DNA of 64,000 nucleotides, the filler included, from a bacterium (GTDB taxonomy: Bacteria; UBA9089; CG2-30-40-21; SBAY01): NCBI GenBank assembly GCA_040757115.1. It is 8 parts of 8 records of this genome, joined end to end, with 100 filler letters (N's around TTAATTAATTAA, not from the genome) between each part and the next. Parts side by side here need not be neighbours in the genome. Positions count along the whole stretch, not along the records: positions 59,794 to 64,000 come from JBFLYA010000298.1; 7 more parts are not named here. One strand, written 5' to 3'. Position 1 is the first letter of the stretch; each line of letters begins with the position of its first letter. The notes beneath the pieces were generated by a model. It had not been told where the DNA came from. It saw only the letters and a list, made by a program, of their open reading frames with translations, and searched no databases. This document shows positions 2,799 to 64,000 of the stretch, piece by piece. The position numbers and the translations under genes were made by a program.

Positions 2799-5234
2799 AT
2801 GGGTAAAAAAGACCGAAAACAAAAGACAGATTACAGAGGGCAGAAAAAGGGGAAATGGAAGGTTTCTTTTAGGATACCAAAGTTTCTTATACCAAAAGAT
2901 GAACTGATTACTCCAAGAGTATTTACTGTAGTTGATTATGGAGTGGGATTCTTAGTGTTTTTACTCTCCTTTGAGGTATATCTGAAAACATTAACTCCTA
3001 CCTTGCCATTTGGAGATAGTGGTAATTTTATTACCTGTGCCTATACATTAGGAATTACTCAACCAACAGGTTACCCTACTTATTTAATGATAGGACATTT
3101 AGTTACATATCTTCCTTTAGGTAATATAGCTTGGCGAGTAAATCTAATCTCTGCTGTTGTAGCAGCATTAGCTTGTATGACCCTCTATCTTTTACTTTTA
3201 AAACTCCAGAGTTTTAGACCTTATAAACAAGATAGAAAAGATTCTTTGGTGGTTCAATACACTCCTCCAGTTGTTGCGGCTTTATTATTAGCAGTATCCT
3301 CTACCTTCTGGTCTCAAGCAGTAGTAACAGAGGTATATACCCTTAATGCTCTATTTCTATTATCAATGGTATTACTACTTGTAATCTGGCGTGAGCGGAT
3401 AATAAATTATAACTCTCAAATAAATTCAAATGTTAATTTACCACTTTATTTATTTGCATTTGTTTGTGGGTTAAGTTTTACTCATCAGTTATCAACTATA
3501 TTTATAATCCCATCAGCAATATTTTGGATATTAATAACAGATAAAAAGATATTTCTTGAGTATAAAAGACTTGGATTATTAATACTTCTTTTTCTAATAG
3601 GGCTTCTTCCTTATCTATATTTGCCAATTAGGGCAAGTATGGAAGCAGAACCAGTTTGGAGAGATACGAGTACATTATTGAGTCTTATAGATCATGTTAC
3701 AGGAAAAGAATTTCAGGACAGGATGACACTTCTTACGGTTAATGAGTTTAAAGAGATAAAACAGTGGGTATTTCACTTAGTAAATATTGCCAGGATAAAG
3801 GAATATTTTAATTTATTTATTAAACAATTTACGGGATATATATGGTGGATTGGTATAATTGGACTCTGGATACTCTTTAAAAATAATTTTAAATTATTAG
3901 TGTTATTAGTGCTAATTTTCATAGCTGATGTACTTTACTCAATAAATTATCAAATCATAGATATAGAGGTTTATTACATACCATCATTTGTAGTCTGGGG
4001 TGTATTTATTGGATGTGGAATAAAGGGGATAATCAATCTTGTAAAGGTTGTAAGGTTCAAATCTTCTTTTATTAAGATAGGAGGAAGTTATATTCTTTGT
4101 ACTTTATTATTATTTTCTCCAATTATTGCATATAGCCAGAATTATTATCAAAACAATAAATCAAAATATTACTTTGCTTATGACTTTGGTCGAAATATCC
4201 TAATGCAATTACCGGATAAAGCAATCTTAATTGTTCAAGCTGAACCGGATATACTCACTACCTGGTATCATAGATATATTGAGAAGGCAAGAGAAGATGT
4301 AGCTATTGTTAGGGTATATAACCTGAATGAAGCCTGGTATATATCAAACATTAAAAATAGGTATCCTTGGTTAAAGATAGAACTAAATGAGGAACCAGTA
4401 AAAGGTTTATATTCCCATTATCAACCCATATTTAAAAGGATTCTTAATGACAATATTGACTCCTTTTCTATATATTTTGTCTTTAGAGATGCACTTATTA
4501 CGAATGTAGGTATAGAAAAAGGATACTCAATTGATGAAGGGATTCTTTCTAAATGTTTAAAGGAAAAGACAGAGGTTATAAATACATTAAAAAATCCTGA
4601 TTACATTTATAGAGGGATATTTGATAAAGAAAGCTATAAAGACTTTTGGGCAAAGGTTGCTATTCGACGATATGCGATTGACTACAACGATAGAGGGCGT
4701 GAATACTTCCGAGTTAAGAAATATATAGATGCAGAGGCAGCATTCAAAATGGCAATAAACCTGATACCTGAAGGTATTGAATATTATTATAATTTAGGTT
4801 TGGTATATTTCAATCAAAAAAGATATGATTTAGCAATAAAAACATTTCAAAAAGCCTTAAAGTTAGACCCTAAATATATAAATGCATATAAAAGTATAGG
4901 AAATATCTATGAAAAACTTGGTAATATTAAGGAGGCAATTAATAATTATAAAAAGGTAGTTGAAATAGATACACAAGATATAGAGATGCACAATGCATTA
5001 GCTCGTGTCTATTATAAAGATGGGATGTTAGATAAAGTTATTGAAGAATGTAAAGAAATCATAAGAATTGCTCCAAACAATATTGAAGCATATGAAGACT
5101 TAGGTAGTATTTATTATATAAAAAGGATGTATAAGCATGCAGTAGTGGTATTTAATTATTTATTAAAACTTGACCCAGATAATAGTTATGCAGAACAAAT
5201 GCTTGAAATAATAAAAAAAATAAAAAAAAATTAA
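2799..5234 (+). CDS. DUF2723 (TMEM260-like GT-C) membrane glycosyltransferase with C-terminal TPRs
   Basis: TLTPTL.FGDSG.F..AYTLGI.QPTGYPTY motif, FWSQAVVTEVYTLN, many TM helices, TPR tail (YYYNLGLVY, AYKSIGNIY). Confidence 0.85.
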   Translation: MGKKDRKQKTDYRGQKKGKWKVSFRIPKFLIPKDELITPRVFTVVDYGVGFLVFLLSFEVYLKTLTPTLPFGDSGNFITCAYTLGITQPTGYPTYLMIGHLVTYLPLGNIAWRVNLISAVVAALACMTLYLLLLKLQSFRPYKQDRKDSLVVQYTPPVVAALLLAVSSTFWSQAVVTEVYTLNALFLLSMVLLLVIWRERIINYNSQINSNVNLPLYLFAFVCGLSFTHQLSTIFIIPSAIFWILITDKKIFLEYKRLGLLILLFLIGLLPYLYLPIRASMEAEPVWRDTSTLLSLIDHVTGKEFQDRMTLLTVNEFKEIKQWVFHLVNIARIKEYFNLFIKQFTGYIWWIGIIGLWILFKNNFKLLVLLVLIFIADVLYSINYQIIDIEVYYIPSFVVWGVFIGCGIKGIINLVKVVRFKSSFIKIGGSYILCTLLLFSPIIAYSQNYYQNNKSKYYFAYDFGRNILMQLPDKAILIVQAEPDILTTWYHRYIEKAREDVAIVRVYNLNEAWYISNIKNRYPWLKIELNEEPVKGLYSHYQPIFKRILNDNIDSFSIYFVFRDALITNVGIEKGYSIDEGILSKCLKEKTEVINTLKNPDYIYRGIFDKESYKDFWAKVAIRRYAIDYNDRGREYFRVKKYIDAEAAFKMAINLIPEGIEYYYNLGLVYFNQKRYDLAIKTFQKALKLDPKYINAYKSIGNIYEKLGNIKEAINNYKKVVEIDTQDIEMHNALARVYYKDGMLDKVIEECKEIIRIAPNNIEAYEDLGSIYYIKRMYKHAVVVFNYLLKLDPDNSYAEQMLEIIKKIKKN

Positions 5235-5838: not shown

Positions 5839-7214
5839 ATGATGAATTTTAAAAATGTGTTAATTGTGGGTTTAATAGTAGGAGGATTAGTTTGTGGAGT
5901 AAACAATAGTTTTGCATCAGAGTCAGGTGTCTGTTGGGTAATTGACTGGTATCGCGGTGAAGTAGTGAAATTATCACCAAAGGGGAGTGAAACAGTTCGA
6001 GTGGGTGGATTTCAACTTCCTGATTCAATTTCAGTAAATCCCGCAGATGGCACATGCTGGGTGGCTGATAGTGGTCACGATCAAGTAGTGAAATTATCAC
6101 CAAATGGTAGTGAGATGGTGAGAGTGGGTGGATTTTCTATACTAAGGGCAGTTTCAGTAAATCCGGCAGATGGCACATGCTGGGTGNNNNNNNNNNNNNN
6201 NNNNNNNNNNNNNNNNNNNNNNNNNNNNNNNNNNNNNNNNNNNNNNNNNNNNNNNNNNNNNNNNNNNNNNNNNNNNNNNNNNNNNNGGTGGCTGATAGTG
6301 GTCACGATCAAGTAGTGAAATTATCACCAAATGGTAGTGAGATGGTGAGAGTGGGTGGATTTTCTATACTAAGGGCAGTTTCAGTAAATCCGGCAGATGG
6401 CACATGCTGGGTGGTTGATCACTTTCATAATCAAGTAGTAAAATTATCACCAAATGGGAGTGAAACAGTTAGAGTCGGTGGATTTGATAGACCACATTCA
6501 GTGGCAGTAAATCCGACAGATGGTACATGTTGGGTAAGTGATCCCTGGCAGGACCAAGTAGTGAAATTATCACCAGAGGGAAGTGTGACAGTGAGGGTTA
6601 AACTTGATCTCCCAGCCGGACTTTCAGTGAATTCAAGCGATGGTACATGCTGGGTGGTTGATCATCCCTATCAAGTAGTAAAATTATCACCAGAGGGAAG
6701 TGAAACAGTTCGAGTTGGTGGATTTTTCTGCCCATTTGTTTCAGTAAATCCGACTGATGGTACTTGTTGGGTGGGTGATTTCCAGCATGATCAAGTGGTA
6801 AAATTATCACCTGATGGAAGTGAGATATTCAGAGTTGGAGGATTTGATGGACCAGGTCCAGTTTCGGTAAATCCAGGGTTACCATTAGCGATTGAGATTA
6901 AGTTAAATGGTATTGAGTTTCATACTGAGGATACAATTACTATTGATGCGCATGTAACTAATGGTAAAGAGGAAGTGGATGTAGAAGGAAAATGTTGGGT
7001 TAGATTTCCTGATGATTCATTAATATCCCTATTGAATGTCCCTAAGGCTACTTTACCACCAGAGCTTGATATTATAATCCCTCTACTTCCTGGAGGCTAT
7101 ACCTTTAATGGTGGTGAACCTGAAGGAGAGTATAAGGCAGGTGGAAGATTAGCCTGCCCCATTACCCTTGATTATTTCAGCACGGACATTAAACCTTTTA
7201 CTTTTACTCCATAA
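5839..7214 (+). CDS. Secreted beta-propeller repeat protein (NHL/SMP-30-like) with C-terminal beta-sandwich; spans a 100-N gap
   Basis: Signal peptide, ~42-aa repeats (VSVNPxDGTCWVxDxxHDQVVKLSPxGSExVRVGGF); ORFs 5839-6315 and 6177-7214 are one gene split by gap 6187-6286. Confidence 0.8.
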
Positions 7215-59693: not shown

Positions 59694-59866
59694 NNNNNNN
59701 NNNNNNNNNNNNNNNNNNNNNNNNNNNNNNNNNNNNNTTAATTAATTAANNNNNNNNNNNNNNNNNNNNNNNNNNNNNNNNNNNNNNNNNNNNATAGAAG
59801 GAGGCCAATGTCAATCATTTTTGTTAAAAAATCTACAGATTTTTTAACAGATTAACTACTGATATA

Positions 59867-60295
59867 TCAAGGGGTTAACGCTATTCTGGTTAGCTCACTT
59901 GCCGATTGCAGGTTTATATGAGCATTTCCATGGACTGGTTCCAAAAAGTCTAGTTTTTCGCATATTTCAAATTCGTTGCATTCCCAACATCCTTTAATTT
60001 TTCTCTTCTGACAACACTTTCTTATCTTGCAGAAAGGTGGACCACCTCCATTCTTGCATCCCTTCTTACAACGAAATTTGACCATGGTTCCCAGGACTTC
60101 ATAGCACCTGTCGTAGTCCTTAAAGACTTTGCCAAAACCTTCGTCTGCAATAAACTCTGCAAACTTGTCATACCTGCATGACCTCAATTCTTTCCTAAGA
60201 TCTCTTGCCAAATCAGGAATTTTGCCAGTATAGCCGTGGCAATCTCCGCAGTAGAGACCACAATATGCAATCAAATTTTTATCTTCCGCCTTCAT
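59867..60295 (-). CDS. DUF3795 Cys-rich protein, integron cassette; C-terminus probably replaced
   Basis: AYCGLYCGDC...C..GC...CKIRKCC...GCWECNEF..C; diverges from paralog 61837 after HGNAHI. Confidence 0.8.
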   Translation of the reverse strand: MKAEDKNLIAYCGLYCGDCHGYTGKIPDLARDLRKELRSCRYDKFAEFIADEGFGKVFKDYDRCYEVLGTMVKFRCKKGCKNGGGPPFCKIRKCCQKRKIKGCWECNEFEICEKLDFLEPVHGNAHINLQSASELTRIALTP

Positions 60296-60312
60296 CTTTT
60301 TCTCCTCCTGCC

Positions 60313-60372
60313 ACCTAACGATTGAGTTCAGCGGCGGCGTGAAACGCCGTCCGCTTCAGCGATTGGTTATAT
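60313..60372 (-). mobile_element. attC site (60 bp)
   Basis: Minus strand ATATAAC-CAATC-GCTGAAGC...GCTGAAC-TCAATC-GTTAGGT; MBL stop codon lies in R''. Confidence 0.9.
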
Positions 60373-61077
60373 GGTTTCTTGTTTTTTATTTAAACATTTC
60401 TTTAATTCTTCAACGGAAAAACACTTGCCGTGTGCAGGATATATAGTAATAGCACCACATTGTATTATTTTTCCCCAGCTTTTATATACTTCATTAAAAC
60501 TCTCTGCTTCAAGTGGTCTAACTTTTTGTCCAAACACTCTTAATGTATTCATTGCAACATCTCCAACAAAAATATCTCCAGATGAAAGAAGTAATGAAAT
60601 AGAATCTTTTGAATGCCCAGGTGTATGAATTATTTTACCTTGAATACCTGTAAGATTATAAATATCAACGCGATCATTATTGACAATTATATCGTAATTT
60701 GTCAAGTTTATGGGGGTATAGTTATATTTAATAAAAGGAGATAAAATCATATCAAGCAATTTCACCCATATATTATAGCTTTTAGTTTTCTTGGTATATG
60801 TCATTCCTTTTTGCATATAATTGATTGCATTTTTATGTGCAATTATCTTACAATTTGATTCTTTACGTATATCCTCAACTAAAGCAGCATGATCATGGTG
60901 ATGATGGGTTAGTAAAATATATTTTATCGAATCAACGCAAATATTAAGTTTACTCAACTTATTTTTAAAATCACTATATTTCCCCACCCAGCCACAGTCT
61001 ATAAGTAAATAACCTTCCTTACATTTCAACAGATAGTAATTAGTATCATTAATTACGATAATATATACATCTTTCAT
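60367..61077 (-). CDS. MBL-fold metallo-hydrolase, integron cassette
   Basis: LIDCG, THHHHDH, HTPGHS, FVGD, YPAHG. Confidence 0.9.
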   Translation of the reverse strand: MKDVYIIVINDTNYYLLKCKEGYLLIDCGWVGKYSDFKNKLSKLNICVDSIKYILLTHHHHDHAALVEDIRKESNCKIIAHKNAINYMQKGMTYTKKTKSYNIWVKLLDMILSPFIKYNYTPINLTNYDIIVNNDRVDIYNLTGIQGKIIHTPGHSKDSISLLLSSGDIFVGDVAMNTLRVFGQKVRPLEAESFNEVYKSWGKIIQCGAITIYPAHGKCFSVEELKKCLNKKQETI

Positions 61078-61089
61078 AATATTTGCTGC

Positions 61090-61151
61090 ATATAACGACC
61101 AAGCTCACCTGCCCGAGCGAAGCGAGGGTCAGGTGCAGCGATGGGTTAGAC
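61090..61151 (-). mobile_element. attC site (62 bp)
   Basis: GTCTAAC-CCATC-GCTGCACC...GGTGAGC-TTGGTC-GTTATAT; extra base in L'' fixes minus orientation. Confidence 0.92.
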
Positions 61152-61316
61152 TGTCTTTTTACCACGAAGAGCACGAAGGTCACGAAGATTGGACAAGGCA
61201 AATCTTTTTATGCCTTCTTTCAACCTTTCTACATTAAAATTTTGCTAACTTTATTAGATATTTCATCAAATTTCACTTCGTGCTCTTCGTGTCCTTCGTG
61301 GTTTTAATCTCTTTTA
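61152..61316 (-). pseudogene. Non-coding cassette holding an internally deleted GxxExxY-like gene in 9-mer inverted repeats
   Basis: GTG-KFDEISNKV joined out of frame to NFNVERLKEGIKRF; flanked by CACGAAG / CTTCGTG arrays. Confidence 0.65.
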
Positions 61317-61379
61317 GTCTAACGATTGAGCTAAGCTGCGGCGGGCTTGCCCGCCGTCAGCTTCAGCGATTGGTTAAGC
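61317..61379 (-). mobile_element. attC site (63 bp)
   Basis: GCTTAAC-CAATC-GCTGAAGC...GCTTAGC-TCAATC-GTTAGAC. Confidence 0.9.
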
Positions 61380-61487
61380 TTTTAATGGTCGCTGTCCCTA
61401 TTTTTGCTATTTATTTCCAGGGCTGCCACCACTTTTTCACTGTTTTTGGTTGCCGTGTTGTTAGATGGTTATCCTCTTTGTGATCTT

Positions 61488-61760
61488 TCAACCCCAAATG
61501 GCTTTATGGACTATATCCTCTGGTTTATATCCTAACTCTTCCAATTTATTCTTTAGTATCTTTAATTGCAATAAAGGACAACTTGCATCTTCACACGCTT
61601 CATCTGGATCTGTCGTATGTTCATATTCCAGATGGAAGCATATCCAATGCATTTTTTCAAATGTTTCATAATCTTTTCTATGTTTTTTGACTGGTTTACC
61701 ACATCTAACACAAATTAAATCTCTGTCATTTTGACCCACTATTGTCTCCCGTCTTTCCAT
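61488..61760 (-). CDS. Small Cys/His zinc-binding hypothetical, integron cassette (start may be GTG ~61739)
   Basis: CVRC...MHWICFHLEYEH...DPDEAC...CP. Confidence 0.7.
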   Translation of the reverse strand: MERRETIVGQNDRDLICVRCGKPVKKHRKDYETFEKMHWICFHLEYEHTTDPDEACEDASCPLLQLKILKNKLEELGYKPEDIVHKAIWG

Positions 61761-61818
61761 CTAACCACAGAGCTCACCTGCCCGCCAAAGGCGGGTCAGG
61801 TGCAGCGATTGGTTATAT
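61759..61818 (-). mobile_element. attC site (60 bp)
   Basis: ATATAAC-CAATC-GCTGCACC...GGTGAGC-TCTGTG-GTTAGAT. Confidence 0.92.
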
Positions 61819-61836
61819 GGAACCATGTTCAGCCCA

Positions 61837-62301
61837 TCACAGCCAGATATAAAATTTCTCTCTGTATTCTACCCACTTTCTTAAACCATATTCTTTGATT
61901 TTTCTCAGATTTTGTTGAGGACTATCGCCATGAAGTGGTTTAAGAAACTCAAATTTATCGCATGCCTCGAATTCATTGCATTGCCAACAACCATCGATAT
62001 GTTTGGATTGAGCACACCCTTTAATTTTGCAAGATTGCTCACACCCATCACCGCCTAACCTACAGGGATTATCACATCTCAGTTTGATTATTGTCCCTAA
62101 AACTTCAAGGAATTTGTGGTAATGGTTAAGTTCTTTTATGGAGTTAGCTTCAACTTCTGCATAGTTGTCAAATCTATCTTTTTGTAGTTTAGTAGATAAT
62201 TCTCGTGCTAAATCAGCAGTTTTACTTCTATAGCGTATACAGTCGCCACAATATAGACCACAATATGCAGTGAGATTTGTTTCTTCCTGGTTTCTATTCA
62301 T
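61837..62301 (-). CDS. DUF3795 Cys-rich protein, integron cassette
   Basis: AYCGLYCGDC...C..PC...CKIKGC...GCWQCNEF..C. Confidence 0.82.
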   Translation of the reverse strand: MNRNQEETNLTAYCGLYCGDCIRYRSKTADLARELSTKLQKDRFDNYAEVEANSIKELNHYHKFLEVLGTIIKLRCDNPCRLGGDGCEQSCKIKGCAQSKHIDGCWQCNEFEACDKFEFLKPLHGDSPQQNLRKIKEYGLRKWVEYREKFYIWL

Positions 62302-62337
62302 TGTTTACGCTTCCTTTCCGCGAGATGTTACAATTCC

Positions 62338-62398
62338 ACATAACGACTGAGCTCAGCCGCCGAGCGTAAGCGAGGTCGGCTGCAGCGATGGGTTAGGT
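62338..62398 (-). mobile_element. attC site (61 bp)
   Basis: ACCTAAC-CCATC-GCTGCAGC...GCTGAGC-TCAGTC-GTTATGT. Confidence 0.92.
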
Positions 62399-62468
62399 GG
62401 CAATATTATGCATAAAACCTTACCCACAGGAACTGTTTAGCCCAACAATATCTCAAAAAATCTCTCTT

Positions 62469-62744
62469 TCATTTTAGAAGTGCATCTGCCTCCGATGGAG
62501 TTGCTAAAGGATAAATGTCAAAACTCACTGGTACAATGCTTAACCATTGGGTCATCAGTTTATGAAGCTCATCATTTGAAGATACATCAAAAATTACGAT
62601 AGAACCTCTCCCTACTCTGGGATAGAAACAGATTACCTTGTTTTCTGATTCTAAACCCTTAATCCAAGACCTAAATTCTGATCTCGCATTTTTTACATCT
62701 TCGAGCTTAGAAGGATGAGGAGTACTTATCACCAAATACAACAT
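62469..62744 (-). CDS. Muconolactone isomerase/DUF3303-like dimeric alpha-beta barrel protein, integron cassette
   Basis: MLYLVI...GRGSIVIFDVSSNDELHKLM..W....FDIYPL. Confidence 0.65.
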   Translation of the reverse strand: MLYLVISTPHPSKLEDVKNARSEFRSWIKGLESENKVICFYPRVGRGSIVIFDVSSNDELHKLMTQWLSIVPVSFDIYPLATPSEADALLK

Positions 62745-62778
62745 AGCTACCCTTCTTTCCTTGTTGAATTAGTTGTCC

Positions 62779-62910
62779 ACCTAACGATAAAGTTCAGGTG
62801 CGGCGGGGAGAATTACCACAAAAGTTTGATAGCAAGATAAAACTTTGAGAGACCACAAAACTCTGACCACGGCACAGTCCCCCGCCGTCAACTGCAACGC
62901 AGGGTTAGAC
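62779..62910 (-). mobile_element. Long attC site (132 bp)
   Basis: GTCTAAC-CCTGC-GTTGCAGT...CCTGAAC-TTTATC-GTTAGGT with GACGGCGGGG/CCCCGCCGC stem. Confidence 0.82.
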
Positions 62911-63097
62911 AAAAGCTCTGATTCGCTGTCTTTTCCTTTTCCTCTGCCTCACCGAATTATTGTGCATTCCACATTCACGGTTTGCCCCTAAAATATCTCC
63001 TTTTTATTTTCTCACACAAAGCCACAAAGAACACAAAGGTTTATTGTTTTATTCAATTCCTTTGTGACTTTGTGTCTCTGTGTGATTATTTTTATTA

Positions 63098-63231
63098 GTC
63101 TAACGATAGAACTCACCTGCAGCAGGGAGAATTACCACTAAACTTTCATAAGCAAGATAAAACTCTGGTAAACTACAAAACTATCTCAATCACGCCCAAC
63201 CCCTGCTGTCAGGTCCAGTGAATGGTTAGAA
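63098..63231 (-). mobile_element. Long attC site (134 bp), homologous to 62779-62910
   Basis: TTCTAAC-CATTC-ACTGGACC...GGTGAGT-TCTATC-GTTAGAC; shares GGAGAATTACCAC and AGCAAGATAAAACT. Confidence 0.82.
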
Positions 63232-63337
63232 AAAGCTGCACTTCGCCGTCTTTTTCCTTTCTTCTTTTTGATAGTTAATTCTCAATTCGAGGTCTGACCC
63301 CAATCCCTGACTGACCCCAATCCCCCGCCTTAATTTG

Positions 63338-63808
63338 TTATGCCTTATTTTTCTTCCTTTTTGATTTTTGCTTTGTATTTGTGTCAATGCGATGTCGAAA
63401 CATCCAGTAATGGGTCTTTACTCTTTGAATGTATGCCTGGTCCTGGAGAACAACTTTTTCCACCATGTCTAAAATCAGAGGTGCAATCTCCGATTGTGGA
63501 CTGGCTAAATTCAGAACTGGGCCTTTCAACTCGTCTATGATTTTCGGATCGTCATCTCCCATCCATTTCGCATAAAACTCTGGACTTTCCCACCCATAGG
63601 CAATAACTGCTTCGGCTTGTTTGGTCAGCGAAGATACAACATAGAAAAAGACCCGTCGGCAATCACAATCGGGCTCGTCACAATACATTTCGAGCAAAGA
63701 ATAATGAGCAGGTGGTAAATCCCATGATGAGTTTTCAAGTACGGTAATAGTGCGTGTTTCTCGTTCTGCTATTTTGGGAAAATAATCATGAAATAAAACA
63801 TATGGCAT
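63338..63808 (-). CDS. Conserved hypothetical, first integron cassette
   Basis: AERETR, EMYCDEPDCDCRRV, IAYGWES; AGGAG RBS just after GTTAGAC. Confidence 0.75.
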   Translation of the reverse strand: MPYVLFHDYFPKIAERETRTITVLENSSWDLPPAHYSLLEMYCDEPDCDCRRVFFYVVSSLTKQAEAVIAYGWESPEFYAKWMGDDDPKIIDELKGPVLNLASPQSEIAPLILDMVEKVVLQDQAYIQRVKTHYWMFRHRIDTNTKQKSKRKKNKA

Positions 63809-63823
63809 TTATCTTCTCCTTAT

Positions 63824-63860
63824 GTCTAACCTTAGATTATACTGCCTATTGGCAGTTTTA
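63824..63860 (-). mobile_element. Putative attI site
   Basis: GTTAGAC core starting cassette 1 without an attC stem upstream; preceded by GGCAGTATAAT motif repeated at 63970-63984. Confidence 0.6.
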
Positions 63861-63890
63861 TATTACTGCATTATAAGTTAGGCTATTTAT

Positions 63891-63919
63891 AGAGTAGCAT
63901 AAATAAAATATTCTGTCAA
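63891..63919 (-). promoter_or_regulatory. Putative Pc cassette promoter
   Basis: Minus strand TTGACA-N17-TACTCT with TG extension, pointing into the array. Confidence 0.65.
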
Positions 63920-64000
63920 GAAAAATTTTAATATCAAAATTAGAAAATACTGAAAAATAACATCCTGGTATTATACTGCCTATTAGCGGTTTTTATTTTA

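Follow-up and report, generated by a model that had tools for sequence, protein, structure and literature searches.

In established integron biology, gene cassettes are excised as circles and inserted at the attI site, and the superintegron of Vibrio cholerae, with its V. cholerae repeats (VCR), is a sedentary chromosomal integron with long, species-specific attC sites. Here we describe a cassette array at the end of a 64-kb stretch of bacterial DNA (the window), which we regard as very probably a genuine integron gene-cassette array (positions 59794-64000) and the attI-proximal part of a chromosomal integron. The window joins contig pieces through N44-TTAATTAATTAA-N44 linkers (e.g. at 6187-6286) and represents several molecules. 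The array contig, C221, has a length of 4,207 bp and is present in its entirety, exactly as positions 59794-64000. Adjacency across a linker is artificial, so the genes left of 59694 are not to be taken as neighbours of the array; on the other side, position 64000 is the end of C221 and the array sequence stops there.

The host assembly is metagenome-derived and contains 4.3 Mb in 462 contigs, with an estimated contamination of 1.41%. The HtpX protein of the host shares 80-82% identity with two 'MAG: bacterium' records (MAG, metagenome-assembled genome), followed by Nitrospirota at 63-64%, and the public runs that contain the C221 sequence are groundwater metagenomes. The host is an uncultivated, unclassified groundwater lineage, and in this it differs from that of the V. 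cholerae superintegron.

In several other respects the genome resembles that system. It has many cassettes (42 contigs carry at least 144 attC sites, counted as paired left- and right-arm hidden Markov model matches) and one dominant long attC type (130-139 nt, 108 of 144 sites). Most open reading frames (ORFs) in the cassettes are small and of unknown function, some cassettes are gene-less, and the canonical IntI is 50-60% alike to VchIntIA over residues 127-319. As in sedentary integrons, the locus on contig C223 corresponds to an orthologue that occupies the same position on the chromosome of a same-genus genome; this integron is old, since the same-genus locus also contains intI. In contrast to the V. 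cholerae superintegron, the cassettes are distributed over several integrase loci, seven of the eight intI genes are broken, and a short attC class (50-69 nt, 28 of 144 sites) is interleaved with the long one, the window having five short and two long sites.

Multiple and decayed integrons are already known from the survey of Cury et al. 2016 (PMC4889954), although the number found here is high. That survey lists 36 genomes (20% of the integron-bearing genomes) that encode more than one integrase, and the eight intI loci of our genome are well above this 'more than one'. Its passages on clusters of attC sites lacking an integrase (CALIN) place intI pseudogenes within 10 kb of 15 out of 279 CALIN. 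Taken alone, C221 is like a CALIN of this description, with attC sites and no integrase; in contrast to the CALIN and degraded-intI cases in those passages, the cause of the pseudogene is visible here, namely the insertion of a miniature inverted-repeat transposable element (MITE).

A further likeness is to the delta-attI-type cassettes, which the relevant part of PMC12901181 describes from clinical class 1 and 2 mobile integrons as carrying attI remnants of 14-18 nt. Similarly, attI ends of ~45 nt that finish in GTTAG occupy expected attC places in our genome, but these putative cassette ends are longer and have an environmental chromosomal setting. Such copies of the last attI bases occur inside arrays or away from intI at C253:~3320-3367, C322:17775-17819, C151:400-443, C146:2844-2890 and C461:1790-1816.

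The C221 array itself is ordinary, a further case of a known kind that adds one environmental integron, with cargo mostly of unknown function, from a lineage without a cultured member. The genome-wide picture is moderately interesting, and this setting is the more useful one, given its two interleaved attC length classes and its degraded integrase genes, one of them visibly degraded by a MITE. It provides a natural test bed for the persistence and shuffling of arrays after loss of their own integrase, for the question of whether a single surviving integrase serves many arrays in trans, and for that of whether gene-less cassettes spread as selfish elements.

attC sites of the array

The array begins with an attI-like region, followed by eight cassettes on the minus strand, seven of which end in an attC site. 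These elements are listed below, with attC extents running from the start of R'' to the end of R' and with scores for the attC model R2 that is introduced later in this section.

63824-64000, minus strand: attI-like region, two direct repeats of ~38 nt, ending in the core GTTAGAC (63830-63824)
63231-63098, minus strand: attC A, long (134 nt), R'' TTCTAAC, R' GTTAGAC, R2 110.1 bits, E = 7e-25
62910-62779, minus strand: attC B, long (132 nt), R'' GTCTAAC, R' GTTAGGT, R2 152 bits, E = 3e-35
62398-62338, minus strand: attC C, short (61 nt), R'' ACCTAAC, R' GTTATGT, R2 59.8 bits, E = 1.9e-12
61818-61759, minus strand: attC D, short (60 nt), R'' ATATAAC, R' GTTAGAT, R2 57.5 bits, E = 7e-12
61379-61317, minus strand: attC E, short (63 nt), R'' GCTTAAC, R' GTTAGAC, R2 68.8 bits, E = 1e-14
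61151-61090, minus strand: attC F, short (62 nt), R'' GTCTAAC, R' GTTATAT, R2 47.9 bits, E = 1.7e-9
60372-60313, minus strand: attC G, short (60 nt), R'' ATATAAC, R' GTTAGGT, R2 54 bits, E = 5e-11

The seven positions at which the initial annotation had placed attC sites are the exact last bases of the seven minus-strand R' cores, and the features it had ascribed to them (RYYYAAC-like and GTT ends, 5/6-nt spacers, a minus-strand orientation like that of the genes) are borne out by the alignment and the consensus fold. Every site has a left end in ...AAC, a right end in GTT... and unpaired spacers of 5-6 nt. The sites lie 227-777 bp apart and, together with six ORFs, are co-oriented on the minus strand. 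When aligned, the two length types share the same arms; on the left, ...TAAC is followed by a spacer of 5 nt, a box of 3 bp, one bulged base and a stem of 6 bp, and the right arm mirrors this up to GTTA.... A strict fit to RYYYAAC/GTTRRRY is shown by four R'' and four R' cores, while the remaining ones are off at one or two degenerate positions; with several cores being degenerate, a strict RYYYAAC...GTTRRRY pattern search finds only two of the seven sites.

The hallmarks of attC are a paired R box, an unpaired central spacer, a paired L box, extrahelical bases and a variable terminal loop. In the consensus fold of the seven sites (RNAalifold), 12 of the 22 pairs show compensatory changes. The fold is composed of an R helix, an open spacer of 5/6 nt and a 3-bp L helix, the R''-L'' arm bears two single-base bulges, and the terminal loop varies from ~4 to ~75 nt. 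Folded as DNA, the bottom strand of attC A reaches -17.1 kcal/mol (z = -3.3); attC E forms the same hairpin on either strand, with z = -4.0 for the bottom strand and two single-base bulges on the 3' arm.

Two attC models were constructed, R1 from the seven window sites and R2 from 51 sites on five other contigs, none of which is C221. Because R1 recovers its seven training sites by construction, it was used only to collect sites elsewhere. It gave at least 122 genome matches at E <= 0.01 (150 scored of 559 candidates) and 51 matches on the five other contigs; in the window, no match besides the seven sites was found up to E = 10. With R2, the seven window sites all obtain scores of 47.9-152 bits (E from 1.7e-9 to 3e-35), and the best non-site match of this model in the 64-kb window has an E-value of only 0.06. 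In the alignment of the 51 other-contig sites, whose fit to the model structure somewhat favours the pairing statistics, 88.1% of cells are paired compared to 79.2% after shuffling, and the covariation score equals 0.278 compared to 0.127, a value reached in none of 500 shuffles. Shifting the 3' partner by 1-3 columns lowers the pairing to 30-48%.

The sites are GC-rich hairpins that follow ORFs, in a genome where other hairpin repeats are abundant, which would suit ordinary palindromic intergenic repeats (REP-like, i.e. repetitive extragenic palindromic, elements or terminators) with no recombination function. Such repeats would not account for the R''/R' cores, the unpaired spacer and the conserved bulges, for strict co-orientation within arrays (on 41 of the 42 contigs, all attC sites are on one strand), or for the association with intI genes and attI junctions. 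Nor are the sites equally frequent away from integrase loci or in both orientations, and the start core of a cassette fits its own end core better than the physically adjacent one. We consider it vanishingly unlikely that these are ordinary repeats rather than attC sites.

Cassette boundaries

IntI would cut the R' core between G and TT on the folded attC bottom strand. Because recombination takes place at G|TT, the first six bases of a cassette were once part of its own attC. The cassettes that end at attC A to G measure 726, 319, 441, 579, 442, 227 and 777 bp, respectively. Between the start core and the own R'', we counted 1, 0, 0, 1, 3, 0 and 0 mismatches in six bases, compared to 1, 2, 1, 1, 2, 2 and 2 for the R' of the same site (values for site G were read by eye, all others by script). 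The four start and end cores that had been reported as exactly complementary (GTTAGAC/GTCTAAC twice, GTTAGGT/ACCTAAC and GTTATAT/ATATAAC) are correct, and an exact match to the own core is the mark of site-specific insertion. For 97 consecutive site pairs genome-wide, the mean mismatch is 0.98 with the own R'' and 1.48 with the same-site R', random partners giving 1.50 +/- 0.08. Altogether, the array is supported by the attC model fit, the covarying stems and the cassette boundary signature, and the same types of sites flank intI genes elsewhere in the genome.

attI region and integrase genes

The 177-nt attI region occurs in eight copies in the genome (on C221, C119, C22, C20, C420, C408, C162 and C223) with 94-100% identity. 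Immediately after the GTTAG core the copies are unrelated, as expected for junctions with different first cassettes. Four attI copies adjoin an intI gene, namely those on C22, C20, C223 and C423. For C221, the last 106 nt of the window (63895-64000) are 100% identical to bases 1-106 of C423, and no contig except C423 continues the window end at 100% identity; apart from C119, the other attI copies match the C423 start at 98.4% (C162), 96.8% (C223 and C408), 87% (C20) and 82.5% (C22). The intI ORF of C423 begins at base 201 on the plus strand, which is 95 nt beyond the window end and divergent from the cassettes. The integrase gene of the array is thus most likely the C423 copy, which would lie just past the contig end in divergent orientation. 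As the path between the two contigs crosses the repeated attI region, we only infer the link of C221 to C423.

Integron integrases were identified with TIGR02249 at its cut-off of 265 bits. Besides XerC/D-like matches, this model detects eight intI loci in the genome, only one of which (on C322) is intact. None of the 14 control genomes had a match above this value, and among the 31 genomes searched, host included, eight have an integrase above the cut-off. The C423 gene is recognised in two pieces, residues 1-164 (227.3 bits) and 160-315 (241.9 bits), which are separated by a mobile element.

C423 686-866: MITE in intI, 181 bp, with inverted ends and ATAGAG on both sides

The N-terminal ORF terminates within this MITE, so the gene is split at residue ~164, and copies of the 181-bp element with 97-100% identity are found on dozens of contigs. 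The integrase gene that most likely adjoins the array has probably been knocked out by the MITE, leaving an integron that is not autonomous. The same MITE was also observed at C22:6695-6971, in an intI remnant, and at C408:5823-6050.

Present-day movement of the cassettes would require an integrase supplied in trans because the C423 gene is split; the candidate is the intact intI of C322. We infer the recombination chemistry, this supply in trans and expression from an attI promoter. The C322 gene (13613-14995) scores 368.6 bits and encodes a 460-aa ORF with an N-terminal extension of ~150 aa; its relatives at 50-75% identity come from MAGs of Nitrospirota, Desulfobacterota and anammox Planctomycetes. 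The C223 gene (327.8 bits) has lost its N-terminal third and aligns to residues 127-319 of V. cholerae IntIA (2a3v; E = 7.6e-63), an alignment that covers the integron-specific extra segment plus the HxxR and Y motifs. Of the other copies, that of C251 has an internal deletion, that of C22 carries the same MITE and is without its 3' end, and 72 codons are kept on C20. The intI loci on C322, C223, C22, C20 and C423 adjoin attC arrays.

The initial annotation had seen no integrase and had expected one divergently beyond 64000. The first statement holds, as C221 has no intI and ends at that position; the second agrees with the 106-nt identity to C423 as regards place and direction, although the gene found there is split by the MITE. 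Its proviso that an array without intI would be a CALIN applies to C221 taken alone. A true CALIN would be an array unlinked to any intI, the 106 identical bases being merely a repeated attI-like copy. The attI region does have at least eight copies, and intI-less copies of its core occur inside arrays on C253, C322, C151, C146 and C461; however, C221 contains the full 177-nt region, which is more than the core alone. The full region is followed by an intI gene or remnant in four of four contigs with visible coding DNA (C22, C20, C223 and C423), whereas on C408 it is followed only by the MITE, without matching intI DNA. Both C119 and C221 converge on C423, yet C423 is the sole continuation at 100%. 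In the counts given by Cury et al. 2016 (PMC4889954), CALIN are also the more numerous class in complete genomes, with 279 cases compared to 164 complete integrons. On balance a true CALIN appears unlikely, and we prefer an array that belongs to the C423 integrase gene.

Several observations weigh against a genuine attI-proximal array or its link to C423. Five cores are off-consensus (TTCTAAC, ATATAAC twice, GTTATAT and GTTATGT), and the folded bottom strand has C and T as its bulged bases, while the pair usually described for attC is G and T. Both attC models were made from sites of this same genome. The end of C119 overlaps the same C423 start over 127 nt at 100% identity; because both contigs converge there, C423 may follow only one of C221 and C119 or may be a collapsed repeat. 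In the public data, which are contig-level and come from three runs of one study, neither end of C221 is bridged; in the best run, the Logan contigs are interrupted at each attC and likewise fail to span the contig end. Neither an excised circle nor an empty site was observed. The sides of the 15 joints listed, out of 31 in the public contigs, are short (21-44 nt) and lie on repeated attC sequence. Finally, a sigma-70 scan gives 8 promoter-like sites compared to 13.7 expected, and none in the attI region is better than chance.

The public-contig joints were rejected as excision products, being indistinguishable from other arrays, and a Pc promoter with TTGACA at ~63917, picked by eye, was dropped as it was not found in the promoter scan. 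Within the attI region, each of the ~38-nt direct repeats contains a 6-4-6 palindrome of the ACTGCC...GGCAGT type (63841-63856 and 63975-63990). These palindromes, which also account for two terminator-like matches on the plus strand, look like putative sites for a dimeric regulator or an accessory protein.

Cassette genes

Six cassettes contain a compact ORF in the orientation of the sites, and each ORF starts within ~45 nt of the preceding core.

63338-63808, minus strand: cassette 1 ORF, 156 aa, Cys-rich, with AAGGAG 8 nt before the ATG
62469-62744, minus strand: cassette 3 ORF, 91 aa, DUF3303 (PF11746), E = 4.6e-7, over the cut-off
61837-62301, minus strand: cassette 4 ORF, 154 aa, DUF3795 (PF12675), E = 1.9e-11
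61488-61760, minus strand: cassette 5 ORF, 90 aa, Cys/His-rich
60367-61077, minus strand: cassette 7 ORF, 236 aa, metallo-beta-lactamase (MBL)-fold metallo-hydrolase (PF00753), E = 3.4e-19
59867-60295, minus strand: cassette 8 ORF, 142 aa, DUF3795 (PF12675), E = 3.4e-12, C-terminal part replaced from ~59914
59794-59920, minus strand: end repeat, multi-copy, in which C221 stops; starts at 59914 within the cassette 8 ORF

The two DUF3795 genes and the MBL hydrolase named in the initial annotation are thus recovered by PF12675 and PF00753, with the correction that one DUF3795 gene is cut short by a repeat. For the ORF that had been called isomerase-like, the family is DUF3303 (E = 5e-7, YCII / muconolactone-isomerase-like), and the models for muconolactone isomerase (PF02426) and YCII (PF03795) remain below their cut-offs. 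The cassette 7 ORF falls far under all beta-lactamase, lactonase and glyoxalase cut-offs of NCBIfam; its best beta-lactamase match, to subclass B3, reaches 55.1 bits where 240 are required, and the model for the class B core gives 47.1 with a cut-off of 100. Its sequence therefore supports a general MBL fold alone, with no recognisable beta-lactamase. No family was found in Pfam, NCBIfam or PADLOC for the ORF of cassette 1 or for that of cassette 5, the putative Zn-binding protein of the initial annotation; for both, the nearest clusters in the protein Atlas are all hypothetical proteins. Similarly, a PADLOC scan of the six ORFs returned no defence family, and its sole match (E = 0.0046) was disregarded.

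Cassette 8 is truncated and without attC, since its ORF departs from the DUF3795 paralogue (after ...HG) and a repeat takes over from ~59914. This end repeat matches C137:1-127 at 100% along its whole 127 nt and also recurs, at 92-100% identity, on another seven contigs, in most cases at a contig end. A longer copy at C247:2699-3020 has a strong TTGACA-17-TATACT promoter-like motif and a small basic ORF. A degenerate attC considered at ~59918-59842 was rejected, as it folds poorly (z = -0.6) and has no model match, and the stretch belongs to a repeat that is found elsewhere without arrays.

Gene-less cassettes and hairpin repeats

The remaining cassettes, 2 (63097-62779) and 6 (61316-61090), had been described as non-coding. 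Neither has a plausible ORF, in agreement with this description, but they are not empty DNA, as both consist of hairpin repeat elements.

63012-63085, minus strand: cassette 2 hairpin, perfect stem of ~26 bp, at the start of the gene-less cassette
61155-61302, minus strand: cassette 6 element, 148-nt hairpin with arms made of three CACGAAG units and TAAAA on both sides

Folded as DNA, the cassette 2 hairpin reaches -22.5 kcal/mol (z = -7.55). A search with the surrounding 88 nt gives 28 matches spread over 19 contigs, and 21 are 100% identical across 87-88 nt. Of the 28, 26 have an attC site no more than 400 nt away and always sit right after a GTTAG core of attC or attI. Most copies continue with the same 93-94 nt and then a long attC. 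As a whole, this hairpin cassette of ~320 bp was observed in ~20 copies with a 100% identical 88-nt core (on C461, C456, C322, C22, C308, C204, C110, C57, C407, C36, C46, C253, C229 and C420), often as the first cassette after attI. Tandem copies are present on C22 and C322; tandem identical cassettes are uncommon in class 1 integrons, the relevant part of PMC12901181 giving 28 out of 1,685. In public contigs the summed depth over the hairpin cassette is far above that of unique parts, although this is not a copy number. This cassette may spread selfishly, or it may serve as an antisense terminator or give a small RNA. An Rfam scan of C221 returned just two sub-threshold miRNA-precursor matches, both on the hairpin at 63005-63092, which were taken as chance; Rfam has no attC family.

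The cassette 6 element (-28.2 kcal/mol as DNA, z = -6.25) shows a different distribution, with 99 BLAST matches on 72 contigs, just 8 of which are within 400 nt of an attC. Cassette 6 can be read as a nearly empty cassette filled by a genome-wide MITE-like element. The arms of the cassette 2 hairpin have three CACAAAG-type units, similar to the CACGAAG units of the cassette 6 element, and the two may be related. In having two of eight cassettes without a plausible ORF, the array is like known non-coding gene cassettes, a term used in PMC1382264, PMC2945992 and PMC8876359; it differs in that one of them holds a genome-wide MITE-like element and the other has ~20 identical copies, some in tandem.

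Genome-wide arrays and possible copying of platforms

The attC types of the array also occur in relatives of the host, with at least 119 R1 matches in the same-genus genome and 6-27 in four genomes of the same family. A shared repertoire of this kind, together with the small size of C221 (4.2 kb in a metagenome-derived assembly of 462 contigs) and the fact that integron contigs are short and repeat-bounded, raises the alternative that C221 comes from another groundwater organism and was binned by mistake. We regard this as very unlikely, because the contig shares several repeats with the rest of the assembly. For instance, the MITE-like element of cassette 6 has its 99 matches on 72 contigs, long chromosomal ones included, dozens of contigs carry the MITE found in the C423 intI, and the end repeat (59794-59920) is common to eight other contigs. 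Moreover, the word depth is even over the unique parts of the array (275-318 in run X1) and the estimated contamination of the assembly is 1.41%.

The flanks of the integrase genes suggest one more process, which we put forward only tentatively and hold to be rather improbable, namely that whole platforms (intI plus attI, perhaps with cassettes) are copied by integrase-type recombination as giant attI-type cassettes. The 3' flanks of intI on C423, C223 and C251, the three copies in which this end is readable, agree as far as a GTCTAA core that lies ~50 nt behind the stop codon and are unrelated with the following base, a break at the exact G|TT crossover point on the cassette strand (G|TTAGAC start). 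Beyond this core follow an attC (C423), an hdrA-like gene (C223) and a DUF2723 gene (C251), and at its opposite end the platform is bounded by the attI junction. Such copying would explain the eight intI loci, the consecutive integrons of the same direction (C22 and C423) and the attI cores inside arrays. However, there are three copies only, the assembly is fragmented, and the same-genus orthologue of the C223 locus is without the 52 nt that hold the GTCTAA core. A candidate empty site for C251, also from the same-genus genome, diverges 21 nt ahead of the core and seems to have been rearranged itself.

On two contigs, integrons lie one after another in a single direction. In C22 (1-12391), four attC sites are followed by a 974-aa glycoside-hydrolase-like gene, a broken intI, an attI and then eight attC sites on one strand. 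In C423 (1-2400), a mini-array of two attC sites abuts the 3' end of intI in the same direction and starts at a different junction (...AACTT|GTTAGAC) behind TTGACA-17-TAAAGT.

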